Positions 9,966 through 36,761 of a DNA stretch of 64,000 nt are shown piece after piece. This DNA comes from a plasmid, in the sequence record NZ_CP049149.1, one strand, 5' to 3'. The position numbers were made by a program, and so were the translations under genes. The notes below the pieces were generated by a model. The model worked only from the letters and a program-made list of their open reading frames with translations, was not told where the DNA came from and ran no database searches. Within the stretch, counting starts at the first letter, position 1, and each line of letters begins with the position of its first letter.

Positions 9966-10051
9966 GCCCCAATTTCTAGCGTTGAAGGCTTCTGCCGGAT
10001 AAACTTGCATAAGTAGATATGTATGTACTTACCTATTAATGCGAGGTTGAT

Positions 10052-18751: not shown

Positions 18752-18945
18752 GATTTAGTTTTCAGAAGACTTTCACGCTGATGGTTGGACTTTGTGTCCT
18801 TCTGCTCGGCGGTTGGGTCATGAATCTGTTGAAGCTGATCGCCAGCGGAGATCTGCATTCTCACGCCGGGATAACACTGGCCCGCGTCGTGGGGGTCTTT
18901 CTGGTGCCGGTTGGCGGCATCCTCGGCTTTTTTAACGCTGAATGA
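18748..18945 (+). CDS. small membrane protein (2 TM)
   Basis: LMVGLCVLLLGGWVMNLL and VVGVFLVPVGGILGFF hydrophobic helices; coupled to upstream gene. Confidence 0.45.
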   Translation: MRFSFQKTFTLMVGLCVLLLGGWVMNLLKLIASGDLHSHAGITLARVVGVFLVPVGGILGFFNAE

Positions 18946-18999
18946 TTTTCAGGGTTGCTTAAACAATTTGTTAAATCACTTAACTAATAGGGAAAACAC

Positions 19000-19425
19000 A
19001 TGTTAGGTTTTTTAAAAAAGAAAACGCGTAAAGCGGTTGTTGAAGTGAAAAAGATGGAGAACCGCGACGCTGTAGAGGCGACCGTCTGGGGTGCCTACAT
19101 GATCGCATACGCTGACGGCAACTGTGATGCCAAAGAGATCGCCATTCTTGAAAAAACCATCGCGGCGCTGCCAGCATTCTCTCCGTTCGCAGGCGAAATC
19201 GCGCAGATGAGCAGCAACATTCGCGCGCGTTATGAGGCATCTCCGCGCTCTGCCAATGCCCAGGCTCTGCGTGAGCTGGGTGACGTAGCCGGTACGCCGG
19301 AAGCTGTAGATGTGCTGTGCCTGTGCATCGACATTGCAGATCAGGATGGCATCGGCGAAGAAGAAGAGATTGTGCTTAAGAAAATCGCACAGGCGCTCCA
19401 GCTCTCTCTGGATGCGTACATCTAA
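19000..19425 (+). CDS. TerB-like domain protein (putative)
   Basis: two repeats of the ADG-x-D-x-E-x3-L pattern (YADGNCDAKEIAILEKTI; ADQDGIGEEEEIVLKKIAQAL) reminiscent of TerB; preceded by promoter-like repeat. Confidence 0.4.
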   Translation: MLGFLKKKTRKAVVEVKKMENRDAVEATVWGAYMIAYADGNCDAKEIAILEKTIAALPAFSPFAGEIAQMSSNIRARYEASPRSANAQALRELGDVAGTPEAVDVLCLCIDIADQDGIGEEEEIVLKKIAQALQLSLDAYI

Positions 19426-19580
19426 TGGCAGAGAAATTAAGGCTGGCCGTCGTCGCCATTCTTCTCGTGCTGGTCGTGCTGGTGGACTTCACTGGCAAAC
19501 TGATGTCTATCGCGGCAGATGGCGTGTTGGTTGGATTGGCTATCTACTTTGCCCAACCTCTACTTAAAAAATCGAAGTGA
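19425..19580 (+). CDS. small membrane protein (51 aa)
   Basis: TAATG overlap with upstream gene; LAVVAILLVLVVLV TM segment. Confidence 0.35.
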   Translation: MAEKLRLAVVAILLVLVVLVDFTGKLMSIAADGVLVGLAIYFAQPLLKKSK

Positions 19581-19584
19581 TCGC

Positions 19585-19612
19585 CGAGGGCCACCTGGCC
19601 CTCGATTCTTCT
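19585..19612 (+). terminator. stem-loop terminator candidate
   Basis: CGAGGGCCA CC TGGCCCTCG perfect 9-bp stem followed by T-rich stretch. Confidence 0.45.
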
Positions 19613-19707
19613 GGTTTAACCGTTATGACGCGTTTGCCCCCCTCTTCTGAATTGTCAGAATAAAGCCACCAAGAAAACAAATTATTTTAACAATTAAGGA
19701 AAAACAC

Positions 19708-20286
19708 ATGTGTGATAAATGCACCGCCGCTAACGCTGAAGTAAAGAAGATCATTAATGAAGTCGGGGCTAAAAAACTCGTAGGGATGCTTGATTCTATA
19801 ACTGGTCATGGTGACGCTCATCCGCTGGAACGCATCATGGCCATCGTCCAGGTCATGGACTTATTTGATGAACCAATGAAAATCCTGATGCTTGCTCGTC
19901 ACTTTGGCGGGGCGTATGTGGAAGAGCATGAACGTGCCAATAAACTGCAGGCAACTCTGGACATGATGAGCGAACCAAAATGCGCGCCGGCGCCAGAGCT
20001 CTCCGGAGACAATATGGGCATTGAAAGCAAAGAGCGGGAGATCGCCAGCCTTAAGTCTTCTTTAGGCATGTTAATTACCGCCTTTAAACTAATGGCAACC
20101 CATAACGGTTTCAAAATGCCAGAGCTAACCGGCGATGAACATCCCGCTGCTATTCGCCAGCTACTTGGTGCCATGACGGATAATATGGATGAAGCGAAGA
20201 GCCCTATCGAAGATATGATGCGAGAACTTGCCCACCGCCACGATCTAAATGACCAGCCGCACAAGATGCAGCAAGTCAGCCACTGA
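19708..20286 (+). CDS. hypothetical protein, paralog A of a duplicated cassette (192 aa)
   Basis: ~50% identical over full length to 28346-28915 (N-terminal MCxxC, conserved C-terminus KCAP...FKMPE...DMMRELAHRHDL); preceded by promoter-like repeat. Confidence 0.6.
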   Translation: MCDKCTAANAEVKKIINEVGAKKLVGMLDSITGHGDAHPLERIMAIVQVMDLFDEPMKILMLARHFGGAYVEEHERANKLQATLDMMSEPKCAPAPELSGDNMGIESKEREIASLKSSLGMLITAFKLMATHNGFKMPELTGDEHPAAIRQLLGAMTDNMDEAKSPIEDMMRELAHRHDLNDQPHKMQQVSH

Positions 20287-20298
20287 ACCTGAAATAGC

Positions 20299-20318
20299 AA
20301 GGGGGCGAGAGCCCCCTT
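20299..20318 (+). terminator. GC hairpin after paralog A
   Basis: AAGGGGGC GAGA GCCCCCTT; same structure follows paralog B. Confidence 0.4.
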
Positions 20319-20414
20319 CCCCTCCTCCGTAGCCCTCTGTATAGATCTTTTACGCCTTTTCTTATCTGAGATAATAAAACCAATAGGAAAACAAATTGTT
20401 TATATGGTGGGATT

Positions 20415-20630
20415 ATGAGTGCTGCGCTTTCTGTCCTTGAGTCTTTTGCTTCGAACACCGGTATCGACCACAGCAAAGAGATGAACGTCATCCATGCAAT
20501 CGTGGCCGAGTGCGAGAAAGGGATCGCGTTCATGCACCAGGTTCACGACTTCACTTATGGCGACGAACGTCACTGGAATAAGTGTTTAAGATTTGTACTA
20601 CGTACATTGGAAGTGGAAATTATTTGGTAG
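20415..20630 (+). CDS. small hypothetical protein (71 aa)
   Basis: follows promoter-like repeat; N-terminus homologous to truncated ORF at 29035. Confidence 0.45.
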   Translation: MSAALSVLESFASNTGIDHSKEMNVIHAIVAECEKGIAFMHQVHDFTYGDERHWNKCLRFVLRTLEVEIIW

Positions 20631-20691
20631 GGATATAAGATCATATCCCTAAGCTCTTTTAAGAAAAAATTTCTTAATAACCTAATGTAAT

Positions 20692-23600
20692 TTAAATCCT
20701 TCCTCCAACCCCTTTAAATTTTTCGATAAACGCCCCAATTTTTTGGAATACGGTCTGCTTTTTCGTTTTGTACTGAGGATTCAGTGGACTGAGTTTTGGT
20801 AGCGTCTCATTTAACTCCGTCCCATTTTCGGTAGCATATTCCCGTTTGAGTGATGTACGGATATAGCGCCTTGCCGCCTCTTCATTGAGGTTTTCTTCCT
20901 TAATCAACGCTTCCGCTTCCTGTTGCTGTTCACGCTGAGCATAGGTAAAGAATGCATCAATGATACTGGCCTTATCCGGCATGTCATCAAGGTTAGTTTG
21001 CTGAATAAAGTCAACAATCAGACCTTCTTTGGCACGGTTGCCCAGACTTGACCGGATTAAGCGTCGGACCTCTTCAGTCAGGGCTTCTTTACCCTTTTTC
21101 TGACGGTTGTGGTCAAAAATCAGGCCCAGAATGTAGTCCAGGTTAATCTCTTGCGACTTGAGCAGGTCAATTTCAAACACCACGTCATCCCAGTCCGTGG
21201 TTGATGTATCCCTGTCGTTTGCTGCTTTTTCACGTCGCTGCCAGTCCCGGATATCATTGTAAGCTGAGCGGTAGTCCTGAACTTTACGTTCGGCAGGGAG
21301 GCGAATGGTTTGTAATTCAGCAAATTTTTCATCATCCACGTAGTGCTCTGCTTTAAAGGTTTCTACCGCTTCCGGGTCACTAATATCAACCTTCTGCAGG
21401 GCTTTCAGCGTGGCAAATTCATCGTAGTTTTGCAGGATGTTTTCTGCCCGCAGATATTCACCAAACAGTTTGACGAAGGCTTTTTTCTCTTTTTCACTGT
21501 CGATACTGGCAGGGTCAGGGAAGCGCTGCTCCAGCTCCGAAACAATAGACATAAAACCTCGTTTAGCTTCGCCGGTTGCCGCATCGCTAAAGCCCTGCAT
21601 GTACTCTTCGTAGCTTTTTTCCAGTACCACATTCTTGGTGTTTTTGTCGCCAAAAAGTGTAATGGCATCAATGGTGGGACGCTCCAGGTCCCTGAAAGTC
21701 ACGATATTGCCGAAGGTTTTGGTTGCATCATAGATACGGTTGGTGCGTGAGAATGCCTGCATCAGACCGTGATAACGCAGGTTTTTGTCAACGAACAGAG
21801 TATTGAGAGTCGGAGCATCAAAGCCAGTCAAGAACATTCCCACCACGATGAGAAGGTCAATATCCTGATTTTTCACTCGTTGAGCTAAATCGCGGTAGTA
21901 GTTCTGGAAACCGTTACTGTCGGTGCTGAAATTGGTTTTAAAGTGATTGTTATAGTCATCAATGGCTGAATCCAGGAATTCCTTTGCGCTGCTGTTCATT
22001 GCACTGGTATCAAAACTTTCGTCGGTAATATCACCAATGGCGCTTTGCTCTTCATTAGCAGCAAAAGAGAAGATAGTTGCAACCCGAAGGCGTTTATAGC
22101 TGCCTGATTTTTTTGCTGCTTCTTCCTGTAGTACTTTAAACGTCGAGTAATAAGCTTTTGCCGCTTCCACACTGCTAACTGCTAACATGGCGTTAAAGCC
22201 CTTAGCTCCCGGGAAGGTTCGGTGCGTTTTCTGACGGAAGTTATTGAGAATGTATTGCGTTATTTCCTGGATACGCAGTGGGTGTAAAAATGCCTGTTGG
22301 TTTTCAGCCGCGCTGAGTTTTTTCTCATCAGTTTCCGTTTCAAGAGACTTAAACTGTGGGCGGACATCGTTATAGTCCACCTTAAACTTCAGCACTTTTT
22401 CATCACGAATCGCATCAGTAATGACGTAAGAATGTAATTCACGCCCGAAGACGCTGGCGGTGGTTTCTGCCCCCAGTGCATTTTCCGGGAAAATAGGCGT
22501 ACCAGTAAAACCAAACTGATAAAAGCGTCTGAATTTCTTTTTGAGGTTTTTCTGGGCCTCACCAAACTGGCTGCGGTGACACTCATCAAAGATAAACACC
22601 ACCTGCTGCTGATAGACGGGCAGGTCAGCTTCGGCTTTCATCAGATTATTGAGTTTCTGAATGGTTGTGACGATAATTTTGTTATCGTCCTTATCCAGGT
22701 TTCTTCTGAGGCCTGCTGTATTATCCGAACCATTGACACTGTCCGGAGAGAAGCGCTGATACTCCTTCATGGTCTGGTAATCGAGGTCTTTCCTGTCGAC
22801 CACGAAGAAGACTTTATCGATAAAGTCCAGCTCAGTAGCCAGACGTGCGGCCTTAAAGCTGGTCAGGGTTTTTCCTGACCCTGTGGTATGCCAGATAAAT
22901 CCACCGCTTTCGGGTTTTGACCAGTTCTTCGCTTTAAAAGAGCTGTTGATTTTCCAGAGAATGCGCTCGGTGGCGGCAATCTGATAGGGGCGCATGACGA
23001 GCAGCGTCTGGCTGCTGTCAAACACGCTGTAATTAAACAGAACATTCAGCAGAGTATGCTTCTGGAAGAAAGTGGCGGTAAAGTCCTTCAGGTCCTTAAT
23101 CAGAGTGTTATCCGACTTCGCCCAGTTCATGGTGAAATCAAAGCTGTTTTTATCCCGCTTAGTGGTACTGGCAAAGTACCGGGTATCGGTTCCGTTAGAT
23201 ATCACAAACAGTTGCAGGTATTTAAACAGAGAGTTGTCGCTGTTAAAGCTTTCCTTACTGTAACGGTGTATCTGGTTAAAGGCTTCACGAATCGCCACGC
23301 CGCGCTTTTTGAGTTCGATTTGCACCAGCGGCAGGCCGTTGACCAGAATCGTAACATCATAACGGTTAGCGTGTGAGCCGGTCTGTTCAAACTGCTGAAT
23401 GACCTGCACCTTATTGCGCAGCAGGTTCTTTTTATCTATCAAATAGATGTTTTCCAGACGACCATCATCAAACGTAAAATCACAGATATAGTCGATATGG
23501 ATTTTACGGGTTTTGTCCAGGCTGCTGTCACTGGGGCTGTCCAGATATTGCTCTGCGAAGCGCCGCCATTCACTTTCGTTAAACACCACACCATTAAGAC

Positions 23601-23808
23601 GCTGAAGCTGGTCCCGCACATTCGCCAGCATCGCAGTCGGTGACTTAACGGAGATAAACTCATAACCCTGATTAAGAAGATCCTGAATCAGCGCCCGCTC
23701 AAGGTCCGATTCGCTCTGGTAGCTGTCACCGGTATCCATAACTTTTGTGTATTTATCAAGGACGATAAAGTTATTGGATTCAGCAATAGTGTGTGTTTGA
23801 TGAGTCAT
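20692..23808 (-). CDS. hsdR: type I restriction enzyme R subunit
   Basis: SF2 translocase motifs WHTTGSGKT (Walker A), [10 protein letters not shown] (DEAH/DECH box), TGTPI, C-terminal helical domain; 1038 aa; low GC. Confidence 0.9.
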
Positions 23809-23929
23809 AGCGCATCCTTTGTGCCGCCTGGCAAGGGCCGGAAGGGAGTTAAGAGTGACTTCCGGCGTGTAAAAAATAGTCTATATACTGACCGGGTGTT
23901 AAGGTGGCCCGATCGGTAGCAATGGTCAA

Positions 23930-25198
23930 TTAATTACTGACAGTTTCAGGTTTCGGGAAACTGAAAAGTAAATCACGGTAGTATTCGTATTGTTTCTGGC
24001 GCAACTCGATTTCACGCGGGAGACCTTCAGTGATGGAGTTGGTCAGTGTGTCGAATTTATCCAGAATCCGAACGATTTCAGACTGGATGGCAAGGGATTT
24101 TTCCGGATTGTCCGGGCAGGGGATTGGGATTTTCAGTTTGTTTAAAACGGATTGTGTTTGGCTTGGTACTCCTCCTGCTTGGTTCATTTCGCCAAGGCCA
24201 ACCGTCGTTAAGAAGTAGTAAAGATACTTTGGCCTAATTTGTGCTTCATCAATTTCCGTATAAAAAATGGTGTCAACGGTCCAGAATGGAACATCGATGA
24301 AAAATAAATTACCAAGCGAGCCTTTTCTCGGAATTAAGACTGAAGGCTTATTATAGGCATAGGTATCTACATATCGCATGATTCCACCTGAACCGTAAAC
24401 AGGGAACTCGCCTTCGCTGAGAGATTTATGATCCTTGCCATTTCTGATGCGAGCCAAATCACTCAATGGCAACCACTCAACCTCAACCCCATCCAGCAAT
24501 TTTTCCAGATAAATAGGTTTTTCCTGCTCCTCATCAAAACTCAGCAACTGGTCGCGATAGTAGTTGTACTGCTTTTTGCGCATGGTAAGTTCAGCTGTAA
24601 GTTCAGCTGTAAGTTCAGCTGTAAGTGCAGTAAACTTATCCAGAATCCGGACGATTTCAGACTGGATAGCAAGGGACTTGTCCGGTTTATTCGGACAAGG
24701 TATAGGGATTTTGAATCCTCCCATTACTGCTGAGTTCAAGTTGTTGATGGTTGAGCTATTCAACATTTCATCGAGATATTTTTGAAAAATATCACTTGTT
24801 AAAACGTGAAATAAATAACGCGGATTTAATTTTTCATCGCATCTGACAACACCCATAAATCCGCCAAAGTAGTAGTCAATATCTGATTCAATGTAAGCAA
24901 CTTTTCCAACATGTTCACGGCTACCACTTGCTGCGCTTATCAGTATGTCGTCCTTATATAGTTTTTGCGAATCCTTTACTTTGGTGTCAAACTTCACCAG
25001 TTTGACATCATTTAAATTTAAACAATTACTAGACAAAGTGATATTGTTAGCACGAAGGACCCTGTAACCTTGACCATCTGCGCTTTCATTCGATTTGCTG
25101 TAAGTTAAACCACGTATATATTTCGCGACTTCTCCCAGAGTCTTCCACTCAACAACAACTCCATCTAGCAATTTGTCTAGATAACTCAGCTTGCTCAT
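23930..25198 (-). CDS. hsdS: type I restriction-modification specificity subunit (two TRDs, IC-family central repeat)
   Basis: two target-recognition halves each followed by [15 protein letters not shown]; central [14 protein letters not shown] and conserved [10 protein letters not shown] / [10 protein letters not shown] blocks; start overlaps hsdM stop. Confidence 0.9.
24584..24631 (-). repeat. 12-bp tandem repeat encoding (TAEL)3 in HsdS central spacer
   Basis: GTAAGTTCAGCT x3 plus degenerate 4th unit on plus strand = ACAGCTGAACTT codons on minus strand. Confidence 0.8.
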
Positions 25199-26751
25199 GA
25201 CTGCACCTCACGGCCTTCAATTTCAGCCACAATTACATCGATATCCTTACGTAACTGATCGATTTTGCCGACGGTGATTTTCAGTTCAGTATTCAGTTCG
25301 GAGATATCAATTATTTCTCGGGTATTCATGGCTTCGACGTAGCTGCTGACTGACAGGTTATAGTTATTGGCGGCAACTGTTTCATGAGGGATAGTTTTAG
25401 CGAGGTGGTCAATATCCGCTTTGCTGGCAAAGGCCTGCATAATCTGTTCGATATGACCATCAGTCAGGATATTGTTATTGGTTTCTTTCTTGAACAAACC
25501 GCTGGCATCAATAAACTGAACACTGGTGTCAGTTTTATGTTTAGACAGCACCAGAATGTTAACGGCAATGGTGGTGCCGAAGAACAGGTTTGGCGCGAGT
25601 GAAATCACCGTTTCAACATAGTTGTTGTCGACCAGGTACTGGCGGATTTTCTGCTCTGCACCGCCACGGTAGAAAATACCGGGGAAGCAGACTATTGCTG
25701 CACGTCCTTTAGCAGACAGGTAGTTCAGCGCATGTAGTACAAACGCAAAGTCAGCTTTTGATTTCGGGGCCAGTACGCCAGCTGGAGCAAAGCGCTCATC
25801 GTTAATCAGGGTCGGGTCGTCACTGCCAATCCACTTAACCGAGTACGGAGGGTTAGAGACAATCGCATCGAACGGTTTTTCATCGCCAAAGTGAGGCTCA
25901 GTCAGGGTATTCCCCAGTCTGATATCAAATTTGTCGTAGTTGATGTTATGTAGGAACATGTTCATACGCGCCAGGTTAAAGGTTGTATGATTTATCTCCT
26001 GACCATAAAAACCTTCTTCAATGATATGGTTATCAAAGTGTTTTTTCGCCTGAAGCAGCAGTGAACCGGAGCCAGCTGCAGGGTCATAGATTTTGTTGAC
26101 GTGAGTCTGACCGTGCATCGCAAGCTGAGCAATCAGCTTAGAGACGTGCTGAGGTGTGAAGAACTCCCCGCCAGACTTACCGGCATTTGCCGCATAGTTA
26201 GAAATCAGGAACTCGTAGGCATCACCAAACAGGTCAATCTGGTGCTCGTTAAAATTCCCCAGTTTTAGCCCCTCAACGCCTTTGAGAACGGCGGCAAGAC
26301 GGGTGTTTTTGTCTTTGACTGTGTTACCCAGTCGATTGCTGGTCGTATCGAAATCGGCGAACAGGCCTTTGATGTCGGCCTCCGACGGGTAGCCGTAGGC
26401 AGAGCTTTCTATAGCGACGAAGATACTGTTTAAATCAGCATTTAGCCTGTCGTTGGTGTTCGCTTTAGCGGCAACGTTGCAGAACAGCTGGCTCGGGTAG
26501 ATGAAATAGCCTTTAGTCCTGATGGCATCGTCTTTGATGTCATCGGTAATGATGCTGTCATCAAGTGCTGCATAATGTATGCTCTCATCCCCTGCTTCCA
26601 TGTAGCTGGAAAAATTCTCACTGATGAAGCGGTAGAAAAGGGCACCGAGTACATACTGTTTAAAATCCCATCCATCTACGGAGCCTCTGACATCATTGGC
26701 AATGGCCCAGATTTGGCGGTGTAGCTCTGCACGCTGCTGAAGGCTTGTCAT
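25195..26751 (-). CDS. hsdM: type I R-M N6-adenine DNA methyltransferase subunit
   Basis: N-terminal HsdM domain ([37 protein letters not shown]), AdoMet motif [11 protein letters not shown], motif IV NPPY. Confidence 0.9.
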
Positions 26752-26999
26752 TTTGTATCCTGTTGTATGATTCTTAAGTACTGTTATTGGCCCGATTTTA
26801 TCGCAATTTCATATTGATGACAGGCTTTGTATGTCATACGTTGCACTGAGAGTTCGTTTGCCCGGTTGTGTAGCCAACACTCTTTCAGTCAGGCCAGTAG
26901 AAACGTTGTGCTGACGATAAATACTGAAGCCCCAATACTATCGGGGCTGAACGTTCAGTCGGTGAGAATTTCTTCATCCGTATCCATTGTGGATGGTGA

Positions 27000-28200
27000 T
27001 CAGGGCGAGAGCGTGAACAAATTGTTAAATTGACTTCAATTCAGCCAGCCCTGCGTCCAGTACCTTTTCCAGATATGGGCTGCTCATGCCCGCAAATTGC
27101 TGCTTCTTCCGTAAGCTTGCCTTACGGCTGGTTTCGGCTCGCAGCATGTTTTGCGCCATGTGTCGTGCACAGGCCAATATTTGAGGGGCATCACCTCGAT
27201 ATATCTGGCAGGCATCCTCATTCATCACGACATCCAGTACCCAATGCAGTTGGTTTTCGATGCCCCAATGACTGCGCACCCCGTTGGCAAATTGCTCTTC
27301 GGTTAGTTCAGCCGAGCTGATGTAGTAACGGTACTCTAGCGATTCATGCCCCTTGCTGTCGCACCGATAACCGATGGCAACCCCCAAGCTGGATAAACCT
27401 TTCCAGGCCGGGAACTGCTCGGCTATCGCCCCAACTGGCATGACATGGTACTCACGGATCTCTATTCGCCCCCGTGAGCGCTCTATCTTGGCCTGATGGC
27501 TACCTTCTCGGGCCTGCAGCGCCATGGCCTCACGTACTGCGCGATATAGGGTTTCTTGGTTGCCTTTGACTGCCAGTAGATAGTCGCCTCCCTTATCGAC
27601 TATCTTGGCAGCAATCTCGGTTTGGCAACCCATAGCATCAATGGACACCAAACAACCACGGACATCCAGCAACACCAGTAATTCCGGAATAGCAGTGATT
27701 TCATTGGACTTAGTGTCTGTCTTGACCTGTCCCAGCACCACGCCATTGGCGCTGGCAAACGCGCTGACCATGTGGATGGTGGATTGCCGATCCTCACGGT
27801 TATATGAACTACGTAGAACCTTGCCATCAATAGCAATCAATTCACCACTGACGCGTTTGTGGACGACTTTCATCCATTTGAGGAAACAAGCCTGAAATTC
27901 GTCTGGCGCCAGCCGGGATATCACTCTGGCAATGGTGTCGTGCACAGGAAGTCCGTTGGGAAACAAGCCTTTATCCTGGAGCCAGCGGCAATGGGCCTGA
28001 CCGAAGTCTTCAATATCTTCCCAGCCTTCACATCCACCAATGACGGCGCATACCGTCAGGAACACGATGTCGAACAAGGGGTAAGCAATTTTTGCCGACT
28101 GACGCGGGTCCTGAAGATCAGCAAAAATTTCAGCAAAGGCATCCAGTTGCATTGATGTACTCCCAGAAAAGGAAGTATCAGATCACAACTGATCCCCAGG
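27000..28200 (-). mobile_element. ISAs1-family insertion sequence (boundaries approximate)
   Basis: transposase ORF fills the element; terminal inverted repeats not confidently identified; sits between hsdM promoter region and paralog B promoter repeat. Confidence 0.45.
27025..28152 (-). CDS. ISAs1-family (H-repeat-associated) transposase
   Basis: N-terminus MQLDAFAEIFADLQDPRQSAKIAYPLFDIVFLTVCAVIGGCEGWEDIEDFG characteristic of H-repeat/ISAs1 transposases; DDE region present. Confidence 0.8.
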   Translation of the reverse strand: MQLDAFAEIFADLQDPRQSAKIAYPLFDIVFLTVCAVIGGCEGWEDIEDFGQAHCRWLQDKGLFPNGLPVHDTIARVISRLAPDEFQACFLKWMKVVHKRVSGELIAIDGKVLRSSYNREDRQSTIHMVSAFASANGVVLGQVKTDTKSNEITAIPELLVLLDVRGCLVSIDAMGCQTEIAAKIVDKGGDYLLAVKGNQETLYRAVREAMALQAREGSHQAKIERSRGRIEIREYHVMPVGAIAEQFPAWKGLSSLGVAIGYRCDSKGHESLEYRYYISSAELTEEQFANGVRSHWGIENQLHWVLDVVMNEDACQIYRGDAPQILACARHMAQNMLRAETSRKASLRKKQQFAGMSSPYLEKVLDAGLAELKSI

Positions 28201-28345
28201 TCAAAATGTACTGTGCTCGGTTAAAAAACGTTCATGATCTTGCCCTGCCCTGCTCTCCCTTAAACACAAACTTTCTTGTCATTACGTATAATGTGATAAT
28301 AAGACATATAAGAAAACATTTTGTTTAAACTAATAAGTAAATGAC

Positions 28346-28915: not shown

Positions 28916-28932
28916 TCGCTTGACTCAATGAC

Positions 28933-28952
28933 GGGGGCGAAGCCCCCTTTTC
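28933..28952 (+). terminator. rho-independent terminator
   Basis: GGGGGC GAA GCCCCC + TTTTC. Confidence 0.5.
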
Positions 28953-29034
28953 ATGCCTGTAAATCCTCCTACTATGCCTTTTGAGCTCTGAAAAATAACA
29001 CCAATAAGAAAACAAATTGTTTAATGCTTTTATT

Positions 29035-29124
29035 ATGAATACAGCCCTTTCTATTGTTGATGACATTAGTCTGAACACTGAAATCGACTATCGGCAGGAG
29101 ATGGGTGTTATGGAGCCAGTCTAG
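29035..29124 (+). pseudogene. truncated copy (29 aa) of the 20415-20630 small gene
   Basis: MNTALSIVDDISLNTEIDYRQEMGVM aligns with MSAALSVLESFASNTGIDHSKEMNVI then terminates; downstream DNA is a lower-GC insertion. Confidence 0.35.
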
Positions 29125-29271
29125 ACGACGATACCATTCTGCTATTCTTCAAACACGGAAACATCCACTTTCTGGTTGGCTCTCAAGCTACTAGGTTATT
29201 CATGTCCGTAGGTGGAAATAAGTGTGCCAACAGATGTTATGGTAAATAAGAGTGATGTGAAGCTATGAATC

Positions 29272-29775
29272 ATGGGGAGAAATACACGGATGGAAGTCGA
29301 GATATGTGGTGTTGCAAATGTGCCGGAACTAGCCCATCTTTTTGTTGAAATGGAGGATTATTACTTCGGTCGCGGCGTTGTCAGCTATGAGGATATGAGC
29401 GCTTATCTTGCTGACAAAGTATTCTCTACTTATTCAGGCGTTACGGTTGTTGGTGCTCGTAAAAAAGGAGAGCTTGTTGGATTTGCCACTTTTTCGCTGA
29501 TGTTCCCCGCGCCGCTTTGTTCCGGTCAGGCATTTATGAAGGAGATCTTTATATCAGAAGCGGTACGAGGCCAAGGTGTCGGTAAATCGCTAATTAGGTT
29601 TATCGCAAACTTTGCCCTCAAACACGGTTGTTCACGCCTTGACTGGACTGCGGAGAAGTCCAATCCGAAAGCCGGAGAGTTTTACTTGTCCATTGGTGCC
29701 ACTCTAATTGAAGAAAAACAGTACTTTAGGCTGGAGGGGAAGGATCTCGAGACGTTTTCTTCACTCGCTGAGTGA
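29272..29775 (+). CDS. GNAT-family N-acetyltransferase
   Basis: acetyl-CoA motif A RGQGVGKSLIRFIANFA; ~45% GC; alternative ATG at 29290 has better SD. Confidence 0.7.
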   Translation: MGRNTRMEVEICGVANVPELAHLFVEMEDYYFGRGVVSYEDMSAYLADKVFSTYSGVTVVGARKKGELVGFATFSLMFPAPLCSGQAFMKEIFISEAVRGQGVGKSLIRFIANFALKHGCSRLDWTAEKSNPKAGEFYLSIGATLIEEKQYFRLEGKDLETFSSLAE

Positions 29776-29866
29776 GTATCAGAATAGGGCGCACTTTTGA
29801 TGTTATGATTATTTCTCGTCAATTTGTTAATAGTTAACGTAAAGATACGGAGAGTGGAATAAACAA

Positions 29867-30271
29867 ATGACAATTTTAGTGACGATACAGAGCCAACTTG
29901 TTGTTGGTGAGGCGCAGGTGATAAAGAGCTTGGCTCCTGAAGGGATGTTGGCAGCCGTTTTCGAGGACGATGGTGAAACCGGGTATTTCTACGCTCTTGA
30001 TGAGTCTGTCGACGGCAACGCCATTCAAGACGCAGTACATATTTACAACGTAGAAGATATTGCGGATGGAGATATCCCTTCTGACGTTAAAATCGGCTGG
30101 TCTCAAGATAGTCAGAAGTGCGTGCTTCTGATCAACGGTTATCCCTACGGGGTGTTCGATTTCGTGGGCAAAAACGGGTATTGCAGAAGTGGCTTTCCTC
30201 CACCGATTAATGATACATGGTCGGCATCCGGTCATGAGTGGAGCGACGCAGTGGATGATTTTTTTCGATGA
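29867..30271 (+). CDS. hypothetical acidic protein (134 aa) downstream of GNAT
   Basis: GGAGAGTGG SD; the fully overlapping minus-strand ORF has no RBS. Confidence 0.5.
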   Translation: MTILVTIQSQLVVGEAQVIKSLAPEGMLAAVFEDDGETGYFYALDESVDGNAIQDAVHIYNVEDIADGDIPSDVKIGWSQDSQKCVLLINGYPYGVFDFVGKNGYCRSGFPPPINDTWSASGHEWSDAVDDFFR

Positions 30272-30524
30272 ATCCAAGCAAGCCTAGCATCTGCCGTTAT
30301 GCTTCTAATATTAAGCACTTATATGGGAGGTCGCTTCTTGCATCGATATATCTATACTGTTTGCGACATTTCGGTTGAGTGTTTGATAAGGTTCCATTGA
30401 TAATAAAACCCAAATGGTAAAGACCGTTCGTAAAGTAAGGCCAATCTTGTGGCCTTAAACAAATTGTTTTCACCCACTAGTTATTATCCCATCATTTAAA
30501 ATTGCCCTTTTCTGAACGCACGGA

Positions 30525-30544
30525 TACTGTTTGTATATACAGTA
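30525..30544. promoter_or_regulatory. LexA (SOS) box candidate
   Basis: TACTGTTTGTATATACAGTA = CTGT-N8-ACAG matching 18/20 of consensus TACTGTATATATATACAGTA, 18 nt upstream of ATG 30562. Confidence 0.5.
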
Positions 30545-30561
30545 TTCAGGGTGGAAAAAAG

Positions 30562-30828
30562 ATGGGCGGCAAAGACAGCAACTACCAGATCGTTTATCGC
30601 GGCGAGACGCTTCAGTGCCTCAAGCCTGGGCAATATGTCTTCTTTCAGCGGCTGAAAGAGTATGGCGGAGGATTCTGGTTGGGAAAAACCTACGAAGATG
30701 GCTTTGAGTTTGTGCTGGAGTGGCCAACCTCTCTGAGTGAGGGGCTGCTGTATCTGATGTCACTTGAGCGCATGGAGGCGAACTATCTTGAGTTTGTTAA
30801 TGACATCGATGATTTTAAGCTGACCTGA
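30562..30828 (+). CDS. small hypothetical protein (88 aa), putatively SOS-regulated
   Basis: ATG 30562 behind LexA-like box. Confidence 0.5.
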   Translation: MGGKDSNYQIVYRGETLQCLKPGQYVFFQRLKEYGGGFWLGKTYEDGFEFVLEWPTSLSEGLLYLMSLERMEANYLEFVNDIDDFKLT

Positions 30829-30910
30829 CAACCTCAGGCATCTTTTTAATGCCGTATGTGATTTGAGATAATAACACACACAAGAAAACAATTTGTTTAA
30901 GGAGGTTCCC

Positions 30911-31147
30911 CTGTTCGGAACCACGGGCGAAATCATTGAGAAGCTGGAGAACTATCCGGAAAACAATTTTCTTCTGATGGTCATGTGGCACAAGTAAGGC
31001 GTAAGCTAGGTTCGACCGGATCTGACAGACGAGCAGTGCGTACAGGTGATGCGTAAAATCAAGGACTTCCATGATGGGAATGTGGGCGTGAATTGGGATG
31101 TTATCGCTAACACGGCCGATATCCTGTTTCTGAAGGAGAAGGCGTGA
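30911..31147 (+). pseudogene. decayed small gene (no ATG start, in-frame TAA and TAG)
   Basis: perfect promoter repeat + AAGGAGG SD at 30855-30903 but first in-frame codon is CTG; frame continues through TAA (30995) and TAG (31007) to TGA 31145 with protein-like sequence on both sides. Confidence 0.3.
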
Positions 31148-31464
31148 TGCTGACATTCAACGAATCCTATAAGACGGCTGTGATCGGCACCGCCCATGTC
31201 ACGGGCAAAGACTTTTAGCTGCTGCCTGTCGTGTGCTTTGACCCATTGACCGATCGCGGACTGAATTGGGTACACGGCACACAGTACGGCTGGATTGTTC
31301 GTGCGGGAATTCGAGGGAATGACTGGAGGGAAGAATTGCATGAGTACGGCATTTCGAAAGAGACGATCTCAAACACACAGACCATACTAGATGCCGGATA
31401 TGACGCGGTACATTTTGACAGTGATGTGGAGCTGGTGGATGGGATACCGGCATGGGATTGGTAA
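31147..31464 (+). pseudogene. small gene interrupted by in-frame amber codon
   Basis: ATG 31147 overlaps previous stop (TGATG); same frame runs to 31464 apart from TAG at 31216-31218. Confidence 0.35.
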
Positions 31465-31477
31465 GGGAGAGAAAAAG

Positions 31478-31672
31478 ATGACGGCAGAAGACGTGATTAA
31501 TGATGTGCTGGTGGAGCTGGGTAAGCTACCTGATCATCTCCTCATAGCCACCGTATTTGACAACATACCTGCTGAGTTAAAGGCCCTGGCCAATGAGTGG
31601 GGATGGATGGATACGGAAGTTAGAGAGCAGCTATATGCGATAGCCTGGCGGATTGTTAACGCGCAACAATAG
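31478..31672 (+). CDS. small hypothetical protein (64 aa)
   Basis: AAGGGAGAG SD before ATG 31478. Confidence 0.45.
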   Translation: MTAEDVINDVLVELGKLPDHLLIATVFDNIPAELKALANEWGWMDTEVREQLYAIAWRIVNAQQ

Positions 31673-31823
31673 CCTGCAACGCGTTGACATTGGTGGTCAC
31701 TAATTGAGGATTTCTATAAGAACTCGTTGATCGCCCTCTTCCCTACTCTCCAACTTCATACACTCCAGGCGCGGCAAGGCTTTTACGCACATAACACCCA
31801 CAAGAAAACAAATAAATAATACA

Positions 31824-32009
31824 TCAATGAAAAGTCAACGCTTTACCCTGATTTGGTCCAAAAAGTTGACGTTTTGCCATGTCACTTCTTATATCCGTTA
31901 AGCAGCGTACCAGAGACCAACACCCTGCGACGAAAACGCCAAAAACGACTCCTGATACCACCACAAAACAGACATGCTCAGAATGGCTCTCGTTGCGTTT
32001 AATGAGCAT
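31824..32009 (-). CDS. small membrane protein candidate (61 aa)
   Basis: minus-strand copy of promoter repeat at 32013-32030 abuts ATG; one TM segment; no SD. Confidence 0.25.
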   Translation of the reverse strand: MLIKRNESHSEHVCFVVVSGVVFGVFVAGCWSLVRCLTDIRSDMAKRQLFGPNQGKALTFH

Positions 32010-32039
32010 ATAAACAAATTGTTTTAGGCATTAAGAAAA

Positions 32040-32640
32040 CAACAAAACAAGATAACGAAGAAAAGGAACTGCCATTACCCACACCCAGGCAATACCCACC
32101 TCTTCCTGCCAGGCTACCGAAAAGACCAACCTCATTGCCCTAGGCTACCGACCCCATGAAGCAAACCTCGAGCACTACCAAAAAGCGACAAGAGAAAGGC
32201 AATTTCTCTGAACGCCATTCCCCCAATACACGGAAGAGATACCCGGGAAGAAACTCCAGACCAGAACAGTCCCCGGCGTCATATCGTTTACCCACTCTTA
32301 CCCCGAAAGATAACGCAAATTCCTGATTAGCAGGGAACGCCATTACTTCACATAAGGAGAACTACAACAGACCAGAAATCACATCACCCACACTTCCACC
32401 TCTCAAGGTAAACGAAAGGAAAAGCGCACACGCCATTACTCCATACACAGAGAAGAACTATCCCCAAAACGAAGAATACAGACCAGAGGAAAACCACAAG
32501 AAAACCATCTCTACAACATCTGCAAAACCACTTACCGGCAGAGAGAAGAAAGTCGCCTTTTCTCCCATACGAATGGTCACCGTATAGAGCGCTAATAAGA
32601 GAGATACGAGTCCCCATAAGAGAGGTTATTCGAGTCAGGA
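32040..32640 (+). other. 600-bp untranslated strongly A+C-rich, G-poor tract with degenerate direct repeats
   Basis: G ~15%, C ~30%, A ~40% on coding strand; recurrent ACGCCATTAC and AGACCAGA units; opposite-strand ORFs encode implausible G/T-codon proteins. Confidence 0.5.
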
Positions 32641-32810
32641 AAGAGCACAGATATAAGAGAGAGGGGATGGCGGGGGATCGCTCCCTTTCCCGTATTTATT
32701 CAAGTCATGATTTTATCCCCCGTAACATCCCTGCGGTCGAACGAGTGAAAGGGCTACCGCGAAAATCAATCGGGAGCGTCCCCGCAGGGGAAAGGCTGGC
32801 TGCCTGAGTG

Positions 32811-32843
32811 GAAACGGCTGGAGGTTTTTCGGGAAACGGCTGG
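32811..32843. repeat. iteron-like direct repeats GGAAACGGCTGG x2
   Basis: two copies 21 bp apart; related triplet at 36167-36232; both loci preceded by CTCCCGCAGGG-like sequence. Confidence 0.4.
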
Positions 32844-33080
32844 GTTCCCGTCATGGAAAGGGGGCGTGTCGGTATAGAGACAAAATGCCGCGGGGACGGC
32901 TGATTCTCTGGCGGTACACCGTTTGGTGCGCGGGTGGCTTTCTTCCCGCTGCGCGCAGCTGCTGATACGTATTCTGCCAGAGCGTTCGAGGGTCACAAGC
33001 TGTTTCAGTAGGTTTTAGGGAAGAGGAAAATACTGCTCACCAGCCCTGCGGTGCGCGTTGAGAAGAATAATGTAAAAAGC

Positions 33081-33131
33081 GCTCCCGATACGCTCCCGGA
33101 TACTCACTACTTTTCCAGTTCTCCCCGATAC
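33081..33131. repeat. direct repeats CTCCC(G)GATAC x3 immediately upstream of a promoter repeat
   Basis: copies at 33083, 33094, 33121. Confidence 0.4.
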
Positions 33132-33209
33132 AAAATGCTTTTTAGCCTATGTCTTATTGCGATAATAACACCAACGAGAAAACAACGTGTTTAGACAATG
33201 GAGAAAAAC

Positions 33210-33428
33210 ATGTACAAGCATTTGAACATCAGCATCACCCTTTGCGGAGAAGAGACATGTACTGACGAACTCCAGATCTCTCTGGATGACGTTATCCGCT
33301 CTGCGGATGTCGCTGGGCGCATTGGTACGTTGATTGGCGAAGGGTATCGCGAGGGCACGTTTGATTTTCATATCGAGGACAACGCAATGTCCGTCGCGTG
33401 GAACTGCACAACGTCAGAGTCCAGATAA
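33210..33428 (+). CDS. small hypothetical protein (72 aa)
   Basis: GGAGA SD 5 nt before ATG 33210; promoter repeat at 33159-33196. Confidence 0.45.
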   Translation: MYKHLNISITLCGEETCTDELQISLDDVIRSADVAGRIGTLIGEGYREGTFDFHIEDNAMSVAWNCTTSESR

Positions 33429-33440
33429 AGGAGGAAGACA

Positions 33441-33653
33441 ATGAATATGCCTGTGATTGTGGAAGTATGGAGCGTGGACTCGCTGGCCGAATGTCTTGAT
33501 GGCGTAGGGCCAGCACTGACCCGTAAATTATGGTCGTTTGTACCAGCTAAGGGAGAGTCACCCAAAGGGAAGGATGTTTGGCACCTGCTGACTGATGAAG
33601 AGAAGCGGGAGCTGGTGGCCGCAGTGAAAGAGGAGTTCCCTGACGAAGATTAA
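33441..33653 (+). CDS. small acidic hypothetical protein (70 aa)
   Basis: AAGGAGGAAGACA SD before ATG. Confidence 0.5.
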   Translation: MNMPVIVEVWSVDSLAECLDGVGPALTRKLWSFVPAKGESPKGKDVWHLLTDEEKRELVAAVKEEFPDED

Positions 33654-33658
33654 CAACG

Positions 33659-33678
33659 GCCACCAGCAGGTGGCTTTT
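33659..33678 (+). terminator. rho-independent terminator
   Basis: GCCACC AGCA GGTGGC + TTTT. Confidence 0.5.
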
Positions 33679-33789
33679 GAGTGATTGTGGCCTGCGGCCA
33701 GCTGAATGCCGGAACGCTTCGCTTGGTGGCCGTTTTCACACTGGTATTATTTACACCAACAAGAAAACAAATTGTTTACGGAGTGTGCA

Positions 33790-34101
33790 ATGAATACCGA
33801 GATGATTTTGAAACTGGATAAGCTCCAGCCTCGCAAAGACAAACCTGCAGTACTCGGTTCGATCACTTTACTGGACATAGTGGCCAACGGCACAGCCATC
33901 CGACTTTTCAAAGAGACCGTTGTCGTCTTCGGCGAAACTTCTCGCAAGCGCATTGTAATGAACGTCCGGCGCTATAGTGCGAAAGGGTGGGTAGCTAAAC
34001 AAGTTATCTGGCCTGAGTCAGATCTGGAGTTGGCTTTACTGGAAGTTAACAAGGTCGCCCAGCAGGAAATTCAACGCGCAACAACCCTCGCCATAGCATA
34101 G
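33790..34101 (+). CDS. small hypothetical protein (103 aa)
   Basis: promoter repeat at 33750-33785 then ATG 33790. Confidence 0.5.
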   Translation: MNTEMILKLDKLQPRKDKPAVLGSITLLDIVANGTAIRLFKETVVVFGETSRKRIVMNVRRYSAKGWVAKQVIWPESDLELALLEVNKVAQQEIQRATTLAIA

Positions 34102-34134
34102 TCATGTGCAACACAGATTAGTCGAATTTACGAC

Positions 34135-34163
34135 AGCCCCGTCGATCCTTCGGGGCTTTTTTG
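34135..34163 (+). terminator. rho-independent terminator
   Basis: AGCCCCG ... CGGGGCT hairpin + TTTTTT. Confidence 0.6.
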
Positions 34164-34220
34164 TATTGTAAGTACTTACCTATGGCGATAGTATTACGAC
34201 GCATTTACATGGAGGTAAAA

Positions 34221-34628
34221 ATGAGTTTGACCAAAGAAGATTTAGTATTTGACCTTTACTACGCATCCAGCACTGACGAAGAAGGCAATAAACTGGCCCA
34301 GCTGACCGTTCAGTTCCGTGATGCATCGGCTGTTCCGCATGTGACTACCCAGCTGGCCCGCACAACTCTTAAGCGTGATCGCTCGAAGGTTTATGCCGTC
34401 GGCGAGCAATCCGTGAAAAATGGTTCGGACACTCTGCTGGCCGCCATTGAAGCCTATTATCGAACAGACCCGAAGACCATTTTCGAAAACCTGATGGCAC
34501 AGGTTCAGGATATGATCGAGGGCAACCTGGGCGCCAACAATACCTGGGTTGGTTCATACGGCATAACCATTGTGTCTGGCGGCTCTCTGGAAGAGTATCT
34601 GCCTGAGTCCGTCTACAACGTCCAGTAA
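34221..34628 (+). CDS. hypothetical protein (135 aa)
   Basis: GGAGGTAAAA SD before ATG 34221; preceded by palindrome GTAAGTACTTACCTAT. Confidence 0.55.
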   Translation: MSLTKEDLVFDLYYASSTDEEGNKLAQLTVQFRDASAVPHVTTQLARTTLKRDRSKVYAVGEQSVKNGSDTLLAAIEAYYRTDPKTIFENLMAQVQDMIEGNLGANNTWVGSYGITIVSGGSLEEYLPESVYNVQ

Positions 34629-34636
34629 ACCAGCCA

Positions 34637-34662
34637 ATGGCGCGTAACCCGCGCCATTTTTC
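34637..34662 (+). terminator. rho-independent terminator
   Basis: ATGGCGCG TAACC CGCGCCAT + TTTTT. Confidence 0.6.
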
Positions 34663-34756
34663 CCCAACCCGTAAACAAGTTGTTTTATACCTTTTCTGAG
34701 TTGCGATAATAACACCAATAAGAAAACAAGTTATTAACGAAGTGGAGGAAATGTTC

Positions 34757-35131
34757 ATGGGACTTGATATCTATATTGAGACGCAGCCAAAAAACGATCT
34801 GAATAACGAGGCATCCAGAAAGCAAGTTGGCTACTTCCGTAAGTTCAATGCTCTCGTTGGGTGGATGAACCGTAACGTAGGTGAAGTTGTAAATTGTGAA
34901 CTTTTAGAAGTTACGATGAATGATATTTGTGCTCTCAAGGCTGATTTGATTCGTCTAAACGAAAGCAATTGTGAAGAGTATCTGCCTACCCAGGAAGGGT
35001 TTTTCTTCGGTAGTCAGGAGTACGATGAAGGGTACTGGAATGACGTGGAAGAGCTGAAAGAGCTTGTGGATGAGCTGATTAAAAATCACGACTTCTACAA
35101 TAACAGACTGACATTTTGCGCCTGGTGGTAA
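34757..35131 (+). CDS. hypothetical protein (124 aa)
   Basis: promoter repeat at 34700-34735, GGAGG SD 8 nt before ATG 34757. Confidence 0.5.
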   Translation: MGLDIYIETQPKNDLNNEASRKQVGYFRKFNALVGWMNRNVGEVVNCELLEVTMNDICALKADLIRLNESNCEEYLPTQEGFFFGSQEYDEGYWNDVEELKELVDELIKNHDFYNNRLTFCAWW

Positions 35132-35133
35132 AT

Positions 35134-35415
35134 ATGACTGATTTCACCATCTCCCCGAAAGCAGAAAACGTATGGCTGGAATCCTGGCTTGACCTGTCGC
35201 CGGCCGAGCAAAAAGAAATGGATTACGTCGAACCGGACGAACAAACCAGCTCCCGCTTCTTCCATTATCAGGATAGCGTTTATGACATTGCCGATTTCAT
35301 GCGCGATGACCGCTTCCCGGAATGGCACGCCGGCTATCCACTGAATGCCTTCGCTATGCTGATGATCCGCGTGACAGATTCAGACGACACCATCGACATC
35401 GGATTACTTCATTGA
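35134..35415 (+). CDS. acidic hypothetical protein (93 aa)
   Basis: ATG 2 nt after previous stop. Confidence 0.5.
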   Translation: MTDFTISPKAENVWLESWLDLSPAEQKEMDYVEPDEQTSSRFFHYQDSVYDIADFMRDDRFPEWHAGYPLNAFAMLMIRVTDSDDTIDIGLLH

Positions 35416-35619
35416 GAGAGGAGAGTCACCGATGCTGGTGGCTCTTAATTACCACCTACTTTCCCCAGGCTAAAAACACCCACCTCTTACCGCCAGGCTA
35501 CCGAACCACCCACCGACTTCCCGACGGCCACCAGCTGCCGAAACAGAACGCTTGGACGCCTCACACCCACTGCGATAATTAAACCAACGAGAAAACAAGT
35601 TGTTTAAAGGATTATCACA

Positions 35620-36102: not shown

Positions 36103-36166
36103 GAGGGGAGGGGGCTGGAAATGCCCCTTTCTTTCCGTCCACCAGCTCCCGCAGGGAAGATTTTCA

Positions 36167-36750: not shown

Positions 36751-36761
36751 TCCTTCGTTAG

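Follow-up and report, generated by a model that had tools for sequence, protein, structure and literature searches.

A dispersed 13-bp palindrome at a fixed distance from extended -10 boxes points to a probable repressor regulon in SSU5-like phage-plasmids

We analysed a 64,000-nucleotide stretch of the plasmid record NZ_CP049149.1, which is called the window here at its full length. Comparison of nucleotide sequence and gene order identified it as part of an SSU5-like phage-plasmid of the Klebsiella (pKpn) lineage. A 13-bp palindrome, AAACAA-N-TTGTTT (motif 1), recurs in it inside a promoter cassette of about 35 bases, which heads about 15 genes of the element. Each cassette probably combines an extended -10 promoter for host sigma70 with an operator for a symmetric repressor encoded by the element itself, and about 15 units of the window would be shut in the plasmid-prophage.

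The statistics of the motif leave little to chance. The window contains 9 exact palindromes (about 0.004 expected) and 16 sites with at most one mismatch, all 16 of which are intergenic. When up to two mismatches are allowed, the core AAACAAATTGTTT gives 34 strand-matches (about 18 sites) compared with 2.06 expected, and the maximum in 100 dinucleotide shuffles was 6. The repeat family described in the initial annotation is therefore real and its coordinates are essentially right, except that the copy placed at 31775-31810 is decayed and retains only the left half-site, and an auxiliary operator at 34673-34685, upstream of another listed copy, had been missed. The motif is also typical of one kind of element, as 102 of the 119 IMG/VR loci with the exact 17-nt site are SSU5-like; the other 17 are single matches in AT-rich unrelated contigs. 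Matches with two mismatches at 27015, 30961, 33997 and 41016 are at chance level, and the last of them, inside uvsW, is not conserved. Inverted half-sites with a gap of 1 bp, their centres 7 bp apart, are the uniquely enriched arrangement.

The architecture of the cassette can be seen directly when sites are aligned on the dyad centre, which was done for 38 promoter-proximal sites from the window, Escherichia phage Cyrano and SSU5. Each half-site position holds 1.4-1.94 bits and the AGA at -9 to -7 of the dyad centre about 1.4 bits, and all 38 sites have the T at -20, the last base of the GATAAT hexamer. The centre base (0.03 bits) is unconstrained, and therefore the two orientations which had been read from AAACAAATT and AAACAATTT have no meaning; the orientation of a copy is set by its flanks. 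These contain the longer repeat TGnGATAAT-aAcACCAAnAAGA-AAACAAnTTGTTTa, at times with a GCCTTTT block farther upstream. Extended -10 boxes were sought around every palindrome in four genomes, and the last T of the box lies at -20 from the dyad centre in 14 cases and at +31 in 10, with only 4 cases elsewhere. The box TG(A/C/T/G)GATAAT is found in 8 window copies and 24 times at these two canonical offsets over the four genomes. The cassettes have no good -35 element.

If transcription starts about 7 nt past the hexamer, the operator is centred at about +14 (spanning +8 to +20) or at about -38 (-44 to -32), with 51 bp between the two positions, and both are predicted to lie within the footprint of RNA polymerase. 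The palindrome ends 12-40 nt, mostly 12-20 nt, before the start codon, close to the earlier estimate of 10-25 bp before the Shine-Dalgarno sequence or ATG. A Shine-Dalgarno sequence precedes the start, and the short distance leaves no room for a promoter downstream of the palindrome. Full copies are co-oriented with the gene which starts behind them, and terminator-like hairpins precede many copies. The dyad, the fixed offset, the conservation of the palindrome and the occurrence of the motif throughout the family bear out the proposal of an operator for a dimeric regulator; the proposed overlap with the promoter does not extend to the -10 box, which the palindrome leaves free.

From these data we propose the following mechanism, in which promoter activity, repression and the identity of the protein are predicted from the sequence. 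Each copy would provide a host-sigma70 promoter of the extended -10 type TGnGATAAT at a fixed distance from the 13-bp operator, which would lie about 14 bp downstream of the predicted start and at some promoters about 38 bp upstream as well or instead. An element-encoded symmetric DNA-binding protein would sit on the operators, may bind cooperatively at paired sites 25 or 51 bp apart, and would keep the units of the window, or about 20 per genome, shut during carriage as a plasmid-prophage. These units would be small accessory genes, nrdB and terS and, in relatives, parA, a helicase gene and cobT. A protein that works from both -38 and +14 would have to be a repressor, since activation from +14 is impossible. 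Position -38 alone is near that of a class II activator (about -41.5), and the palindrome has also to be considered as the site of a phage protein which recruits RNA polymerase from there in lytic growth. The terS and nrdB sites, without a good -10 box, might need such help, and an 88-aa protein that resembles a winged helix-turn-helix (wHTH) is encoded beside the terS sites and silent in the lysogen. We nevertheless regard an activator site as very unlikely, because most copies are at +14, from which a bound protein could do nothing but impede transcription, and the near-consensus extended -10 boxes of the accessory promoters normally need no activator.

Conservation was observed to be highest in the palindrome itself. 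In orthologous intergenic regions the identity is 95% in the palindrome, 82% in the -10 box, 76% in the spacer and 53-65% in the flanks, and for paralogous copies in front of different genes it is 90%, 75%, 71% and 30-42%, respectively. Sites with at most one mismatch number 18 in Cyrano, 20 in SSU5 and 18 in pINF102.5, a divergent Klebsiella plasmid with a TerL that is 87% identical. Orthologous sites precede terS and nrdB and, in relatives, also parA, a dnaB-like helicase gene and cobT, and the regulon therefore extends beyond small accessory genes. The initial annotation had placed the copies in front of such genes between 18.9 and 35.6 kb, where they do exist; the nrdB and terS sites, which it also listed, are beyond this range. 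Its suggestion that one factor co-regulates an early/accessory regulon has to be widened to these core genes and at the same time narrowed, since motif 1 is one of two dispersed operator classes and one factor would cover only part of the regulation.

The position of the palindrome differs between the lineages. In the SSU5 group the +14 site occurs with or without the -38 site, and the accessory promoters of pINF102.5 have the palindrome solely at -38 (AAACAAnTTGTTT-N16-TGGGATAAT). At core genes of pINF102.5 it is near the start codon and in many cases accompanied by a third half-site at a distance of 8 bp, and extra subsites of the forms TTGTTT-nn-TTGTTT, AAACAAGAAAACAA and AAACAAnTTGTTTnnTTGTTT are present. 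Over all loci the cassette heads at least 27 protein families. As these are unrelated, the repeats could be seen as a portable promoter copied together with gene cassettes by recombination, with a palindrome that has no regulatory function. Duplicate copies flanking a type I restriction-modification (R-M) island, an orphan copy (30457-30491) and a decayed one (31784-31818) would fit such copying. This explanation is highly improbable, however, as the palindrome is better conserved between orthologues than the rest of the repeat (95% against 76-82%), is found without the promoter part at 32012, 7727 and 44719, takes two quantised positions and was kept in pINF102.5 even though it moved to -38.

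Other relatives lack the motif. The Moellerella relative has 0 exact palindrome sites and a de novo motif search in it returned decayed left halves only, and the Acinetobacter and Aeromonas relatives (TerL 60% and 54% identical, respectively) have no motif 1. On these comparisons motif 1 is a separate regulon that belongs to enterobacterial elements only. The same distribution bears on the idea that the sites are bound by a host architectural protein, most plausibly integration host factor (IHF), for promoter shaping instead of specific repression. On either strand, AAACAAnTTGTTT agrees with the Craig and Nash consensus for IHF, WATCAANNNNTTR, at 7 of its 9 specified positions, and the motif resembles the lambda H' core, ATCAATTTGTTG. 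Binding by IHF is still quite improbable: IHF sites are asymmetric and here both halves, including the outer AAA/TTT, are near-invariant; the Moellerella, Acinetobacter and Aeromonas relatives lack the motif and have hosts likewise with IHF; and two sharp bends are hard to fit to tandem sites 25 bp apart.

Expression in the lysogen was taken from a supplementary table of the Cyrano lysogen transcriptome (PMC9928086). Behind motif-1 promoters the first genes reach 5.7-25.5 normalised reads with a median of 7.5, and the background, given as the median of the whole element, is 9.8; parA is the exception with about 50 reads. Genes behind the uvsW promoter (TACTATAAT), which carries no operator, are expressed (46 and 114 reads). 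These values are compatible with repression of the motif-1 targets. As a proof of repression the transcriptome was rejected, since the targets are at background in the same way as most of the prophage.

Several observations weigh against the repressor model. With most of the prophage silent, the lysogen data show no significant contrast between motif-1 targets and other genes (Mann-Whitney p = 0.25). The palindromes before nrdB and terS come with no extended -10 promoter and no recognisable -10 box at a canonical offset; their mode of action may be another one, such as a roadblock or a joint effect with the downstream terminator. Fair conservation (71-76%) is also seen in the sequence which separates the -10 box from the palindrome, and the right half-site is lost from several Moellerella promoters in which the -10 box and the AAGAAAACAA leader persist. 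On Moellerella pW18-2-b this was seen at 9401-9567, 10006-10148 and 10470-10903, where the box reads TGnCATAAT. As the leader outlasts the right half-site, the A-rich transcript start may have a function of its own, and some of the element may serve a second purpose, possibly in the RNA. In addition, none of the five candidate binders that were weighed agrees with every test.

The conserved leader raises the question of a translational repressor, either the element's own FljA-family protein or one like T4 RegA, which would read AAGAAAACAAnUUGUUUA in the mRNA upstream of the ribosome-binding site. A start after GATAAT would put the +14 palindrome into the transcript, ending 12-20 nt before the start codon, and the retention of the AAGAAAACAA leader without the right half-site in Moellerella would also fit an RNA element. 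The consensus of T4 RegA from systematic evolution of ligands by exponential enrichment, AAAAUUGUUAUGUAA, would share AAAUUGUU with motif 1. Such an element is improbable, as a perfect dyad with a free centre base fits double-stranded DNA and not single-stranded RNA. As an RNA hairpin the palindrome would have a 1-nt loop and cannot form, and the predicted leaders are unstructured, folding no better than shuffled sequences (z of -1.0 to +1.2) with no consistent pairing of the halves. Ten sites at -38 are upstream of the predicted start, and the pINF102.5 accessory promoters have only those; the FljA homologue of this plasmid is 26-29% identical despite an unchanged motif. A search of the whole window against Rfam at gathering thresholds gave no match, and the cassette does not have the features of a structured cis-regulatory RNA.

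Returning to a DNA-binding repressor, ribbon-helix-helix (RHH) proteins are the leading candidates from their sequence patterns, namely the partner of ParA, encoded outside the window, and the open reading frame (ORF) at 39251-39529. They were ranked first because the geometry of the sites, with half-site centres 7 bp apart and extra direct half-sites in pINF102.5, matches omega-type RHH binding. The binder would then be an RHH repressor that acts as a dimer of dimers, in line with the 7-bp spacing and with direct half-sites 8 bp on in pINF102.5, and a degenerate third subsite may be present in the conserved AAnAAGA flank. Pfam RHH hits are below threshold (RHH_4, E = 0.025; RHH_1, E = 0.035, the latter for the ParA partner), and no sequence match in the PDB was found.

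The 92-aa protein at 39251-39529 had been proposed as a regulator before, and a weak co-variation with the motif speaks for it: its N-terminal CQVxL(T/S) is kept in 4 of 4 motif-1-positive genomes and differs in three motif-1-negative lineages. Its Cyrano orthologue, CYRAN_117, has 114 normalised reads in the lysogen. The promoter of its operon carries motif 2 (see below) and not motif 1, and the AlphaFold single-sequence model has a predicted local distance difference test score (pLDDT) of 54. For the wHTH-like 88-aa protein, the other regulator suggested earlier, the evidence is mostly negative. It is confined to enterobacterial SSU5-like elements, and its counterpart in pINF102.5, a plasmid with an intact motif, is 72% identical. 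Counting against it are its silence in the Cyrano lysogen (7.8 reads) and its presence in Moellerella (61% identity), a motif-less element; its single-sequence structure model is of low confidence (pLDDT 51).

A full-length FljA-family protein is a weaker candidate. It is confined to enterobacterial elements and conserved in about 830 SSU5-like plasmids of this group, and its family is reported to bind the fliC mRNA leader. Its low identity in pINF102.5, where the motif is unchanged, counts against it, and neither the FljA-like gene nor the neighbouring minus-strand genes have an autoregulatory motif-1 site. As the family is named 'repressor of phase-1 flagellin', its presence suggests that these phage-plasmids may shut off flagellin synthesis of the host. 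Presence/absence profiling for genes found in SSU5 and pINF102.5 and not in Moellerella did not single out one regulator: it returned CYRAN_37, 62, 29, 59, 61 and 111, the FljA-like gene and a large number of shadow ORFs.

The ParA partner (CYRAN_29 / SSU5_034) shows a ParG/omega-like pattern, a basic tail followed by SRTMSLEDEY...TRSDVIRAAI. In every motif-1-positive genome the parA promoter has a motif-1 site (Cyrano 29259, SSU5 30449 and, with three subsites, pINF102.5 77555). The palindromes could thus be centromere-like partition sites as well as operators, bound by this RHH partner, which would autoregulate parA; the silencing of other promoters would then be a by-product of the assembly of the partition complex. 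This is a special case of the repressor model with the protein named, and we consider it possible, though unlikely. The partner is expressed in the lysogen (89 reads), and RHH-type ParB proteins repress promoters via their parS sites (PMC9499535). Against it, the Moellerella element keeps the same beta-strand (SRTVSMEDEY) without dispersed palindromes, the Acinetobacter parA promoter uses its own local repeats instead of the dispersed motif of the lineage, and the Pfam RHH support for the partner (E = 0.035) is below threshold. Each site here has only 2-3 subsites, and the activation of ParA by omega takes at least 4 contiguous repeats (PMC9499535). It is rather doubtful that the partner binds all of the about 20 dispersed palindromes, so that the partition system would be a global silencer of accessory, replication and packaging promoters with a scattered centromere. 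If it did, plasmid segregation would be tied directly to the choice between prophage and lytic expression. On the Acinetobacter plasmid NZ_CP107594 the parA promoter region (23047-23248) has two tandem copies of TCTATATAGATT, unlike the dispersed palindrome of the lineage.

Two further readings were considered and rejected. CYRAN_45, the integrase-linked helix-turn-helix (HTH) repressor of Cyrano, has motif 2 (GGTAAGtgCTTACC) in its own control region, and SSU5, without this gene, keeps motif 1. Promoters of a phage-specific RNA polymerase, an idea prompted by the length of the conserved repeat, were discarded because the large minus-strand ORFs at 20.7-28.2 kb are type I R-M genes and the annotations include no polymerase or sigma factor.

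The repressor model has parallels in known systems, and in function the C1 operators of P1, the omega and KorA/KorB global regulons and the SopB sites of N15 come closest. Omega of pSM19035 binds 7-bp subsites at promoters as a dimer of dimers (PMC9499535). Like the sites of omega and of ParG (TP228), those described here consist of short subsites with a 7-bp period, inverted and in pINF102.5 also direct, overlap several promoters including that of the partition operon, and make dimer-of-dimers binding plausible; the element also encodes ParG-like and other RHH-like proteins. Unlike these arrays of 7-10 subsites, each site here has 2-3, and about 20 sites are spread over about 100 kb, mostly at accessory and replication genes. 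Palindromes with 6-bp arms round a central base are also known from KorA/KorB of the IncP plasmid RK2, where about a dozen repeats coordinate many operons; the KorB operator is TTTAGC-N-GCTAAA. In RK2, as with SopB of N15, a partition protein doubles as regulator, and the SopB sites too are dispersed in a phage-plasmid. KorB, an HTH ParB with CTP-dependent sliding, acts at a distance, whereas the sites here are strictly promoter-proximal.

P1 is a plasmid-prophage as well, with a short conserved operator per promoter and one repressor, C1, that is thought to hold scattered lytic and accessory promoters off. C1 operators are asymmetric 17-mers (ATTGCTCTAATAAATTT), in contrast to 13-bp palindromes at two fixed positions, and among the annotated regulators there is no homologue of C1, nor was sequence or protein homology to C1 found. 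In function the C1 system may have its closer counterpart in motif 2 (GTAAGnnCTTAC), which is linked to the integrase-adjacent HTH repressor. The stoperators of cluster A mycobacteriophages resemble motif 1 in the many copies of a 13-bp repressor site in short intergenic spaces genome-wide. They are asymmetric, follow the direction of transcription and affect elongating polymerase at a distance from promoters, unlike palindromic sites locked to a -10 box. T4 PeSL cassettes and the morons of lambdoid phages likewise have a stereotyped promoter for each small accessory gene, often bracketed by terminator hairpins, and copies mark the borders of variable cassettes, as they do here for those of the inserted R-M island too; they share no common operator, which is the most conserved part of the present cassette. 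None of the systems compared is homologous to the motif-1 system, which does not have the features of the P1 or stoperator class.

The searched literature makes no mention of motif 1 or of gene regulation in the SSU5 family. The motif-1 system appears not to have been described before, but its regulatory design is a familiar one: P1, RK2 and pSM19035 are well-known cases of the principle, an operator regulon dispersed over a plasmid-prophage. It sits in a clinically widespread element: phage-plasmids of the SSU5/pKpn/pHCM2/pMT1 type abound in Klebsiella, E. coli, Salmonella, Enterobacter and Yersinia pestis, with matches to about 800-1000 plasmid records, and bear defence systems and sometimes resistance genes. 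The resulting regulatory map, with one stereotyped module at the head of at least 27 gene families, motif 2 at another set and terminator hairpins in several leaders, shows where mutations could de-repress cargo genes. Motif 1 can also serve as a sequence signature for spotting SSU5-type elements and cassettes, and the search for the regulator is narrowed to a handful of small proteins. The sites of both motifs and the candidate genes of the window are collected in Table 1.

Table 1. Motif-1 copies, motif-2 sites and putative regulator genes in the window
Feature	Position	Strand	Description
nrdB operator pair	7702-7714; 7727-7739	+	TAACAACTTGTTT and AAACAAATTGTTA, 25 bp apart; nrdB ATG 7771; no good -10 box at canonical offset
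Operator	18961-18973	+	AAACAATTTGTTA, 26 nt before ATG 19000 of a TciA/TerB-like gene; weak -10 box TGAATGATT at 18939-18947
Full cassette	19653-19687	+	TGTCAGAAT, 13-nt spacer, AAACAAATTATTT (19675-19687); ATG 19708, 192 aa
Full cassette	20367-20401	+	TGAGATAAT, 13-nt spacer, AAACAAATTGTTT (20389-20401); ATG 20415, truncated DUF4942-type N-terminus
Full cassette	28292-28326	+	TGTGATAAT, 13-nt spacer, AAACATTTTGTTT (28314-28326); ATG 28346, 189 aa
Cassette with weaker box	28988-29022	+	CTGAAAAAT, then AAACAAATTGTTT (29010-29022); ATG 29035, second truncated DUF4942-type N-terminus
Orphan full cassette	30457-30491	-	TGGGATAAT (30491-30483), N13, palindrome (30469-30457); runs into hairpin, no gene behind (segment 30437-30491)
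Full cassette	30864-30898	+	TGAGATAAT, 13-nt spacer, AAACAATTTGTTT (30886-30898); then Shine-Dalgarno AAGGAGG and apparent CTG start (30899-30915)
Decayed copy	31784-31818	+	Spacer AACACCCACAAGA and left half-site AAACAA kept (31806-31818, AAACAAATAAATA); right half-site and -10 box lost
Palindrome-only site	32012-32024	.	Exact; no -10 box at either canonical offset; position kept in Cyrano (94605) and SSU5 (90740)
Full cassette	33158-33192	+	TGCGATAAT, 13-nt spacer, AAACAACGTGTTT (33180-33192); ATG 33210, protein begins MYKHLNISI
Cassette	33743-33777	+	GGTATTATT, 13-nt spacer, AAACAAATTGTTT (33765-33777); ATG 33790, 103 aa
Two-operator promoter	34673-34736	+	Operators 34673-34685 (about -38) and 34724-34736 (about +14), centres 51 bp apart; TGCGATAAT at 34702-34710; ATG 34751
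Full cassette	35571-35605	+	TGCGATAAT, 13-nt spacer, AAACAAGTTGTTT (35593-35605); ATG 35620, 160 aa
terS operator pair	44694-44706; 44719-44731	+	25 bp apart; terS ATG 44772; followed by hairpin and T-run (44733-44761)
Motif-2 sites	533, 5226, 10018, 15886, 18112, 34165, 41134, 46670, 48183, 50112, 52742, 59195
92-aa protein, putative regulator	39251-39529	-	RHH-like sequence pattern; in uvsW operon
88-aa protein, candidate regulator	44310-44576	+	wHTH-like; directly upstream of terS double operator
FljA-family protein, weaker candidate regulator	37722-38282	-	Full-length; Pfam Flag1_repress, E = 4.5e-93

Cyrano, SSU5 and pINF102.5 carry the motif at orthologous and also at further positions. 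The nrdB site is single in Cyrano (70326) and SSU5 (70219), the terS pair is kept in both (57/82 and 56/81, respectively), and the operator at 18961 corresponds to Cyrano 80549. Operator pairs 51 bp apart are also present at Cyrano 93114/93165 and SSU5 88319/88370 and 93662/93713, and the SSU5 orthologue (88370) of the copy with the apparent CTG start is followed by an ATG start. Of the minus-strand copies noted initially, the one at 30457-30491 is a genuine full copy with no gene behind it, and the one at 32012-32024 turned out to be a palindrome without a promoter. In SSU5 the counterpart of the former (87941) precedes the minus-strand SSU5_102 and drives a ydfZ-like gene, which has therefore been deleted in the window.

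Strong hairpins with a T-run, which resemble terminators, lie between the promoter/operator motif and the start codon at 44733-44761 (terS), 5253-5280 (nrdA) and 50138-50163, with no space for a further promoter behind them, and the terS-leader hairpin is conserved in Cyrano and SSU5. This suggests a layer of antitermination or attenuation on the packaging, nrd and structural operons.

The second dispersed palindrome, motif 2, reads (a)aaaTAG-GTAAGyrCTTAC-CTA in the enterobacterial elements, with about 12 sites in the window. Its gene set, a different one, includes nrdA, thyX, a methyltransferase gene, the divergent uvsW/parB region and genes for portal and tail. In the Acinetobacter and Aeromonas relatives AGTAAG-NN-CTTACT stands before parB, terS, portal, capsid and tail genes, and pINF102.5 has the variant TATGTA-NN-TACATA. 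Because a perfect copy lies in the control region of CYRAN_45 and similar half-sites are found upstream of the Acinetobacter equivalent of this gene, the sequences suggest that motif 2 probably represents the dispersed operators of the integrase-linked HTH repressor.

Over 28-36 kb the window is 95-97% identical to Klebsiella phage-plasmids, with weaker similarity to SSU5, Cyrano and related E. coli elements, and over 18-36 kb it is about 94-95% identical to Klebsiella plasmids of about 110 kb. The window shares its gene order with the part of Cyrano that runs from about 63 kb across the record end to about 19 kb. The low-GC segment 20692-28152 on the minus strand is the type I R-M island, with genes for HsdR, HsdM and HsdS and a DUF262 protein, and the cassette at 20367-20401 forms its left border. 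Two promoter-operator cassettes bracket the island (20367-20630 and 28988-29260), and behind each of them stands a truncated N-terminus of one and the same DUF4942-type gene. SSU5 has this gene intact, and the acquisition of the island has therefore duplicated or split it at the cassette. Upstream of terS, at 41156-42522, two neighbouring ParB_N-domain proteins are followed by ABC-type ATPases, an arrangement which is not linked to parA and is kept in every relative examined, including those of Acinetobacter and Aeromonas. A segment of about 650 bp at 36103-36760 has no convincing ORF, is partly C/A-rich and carries hairpins at both bounds.

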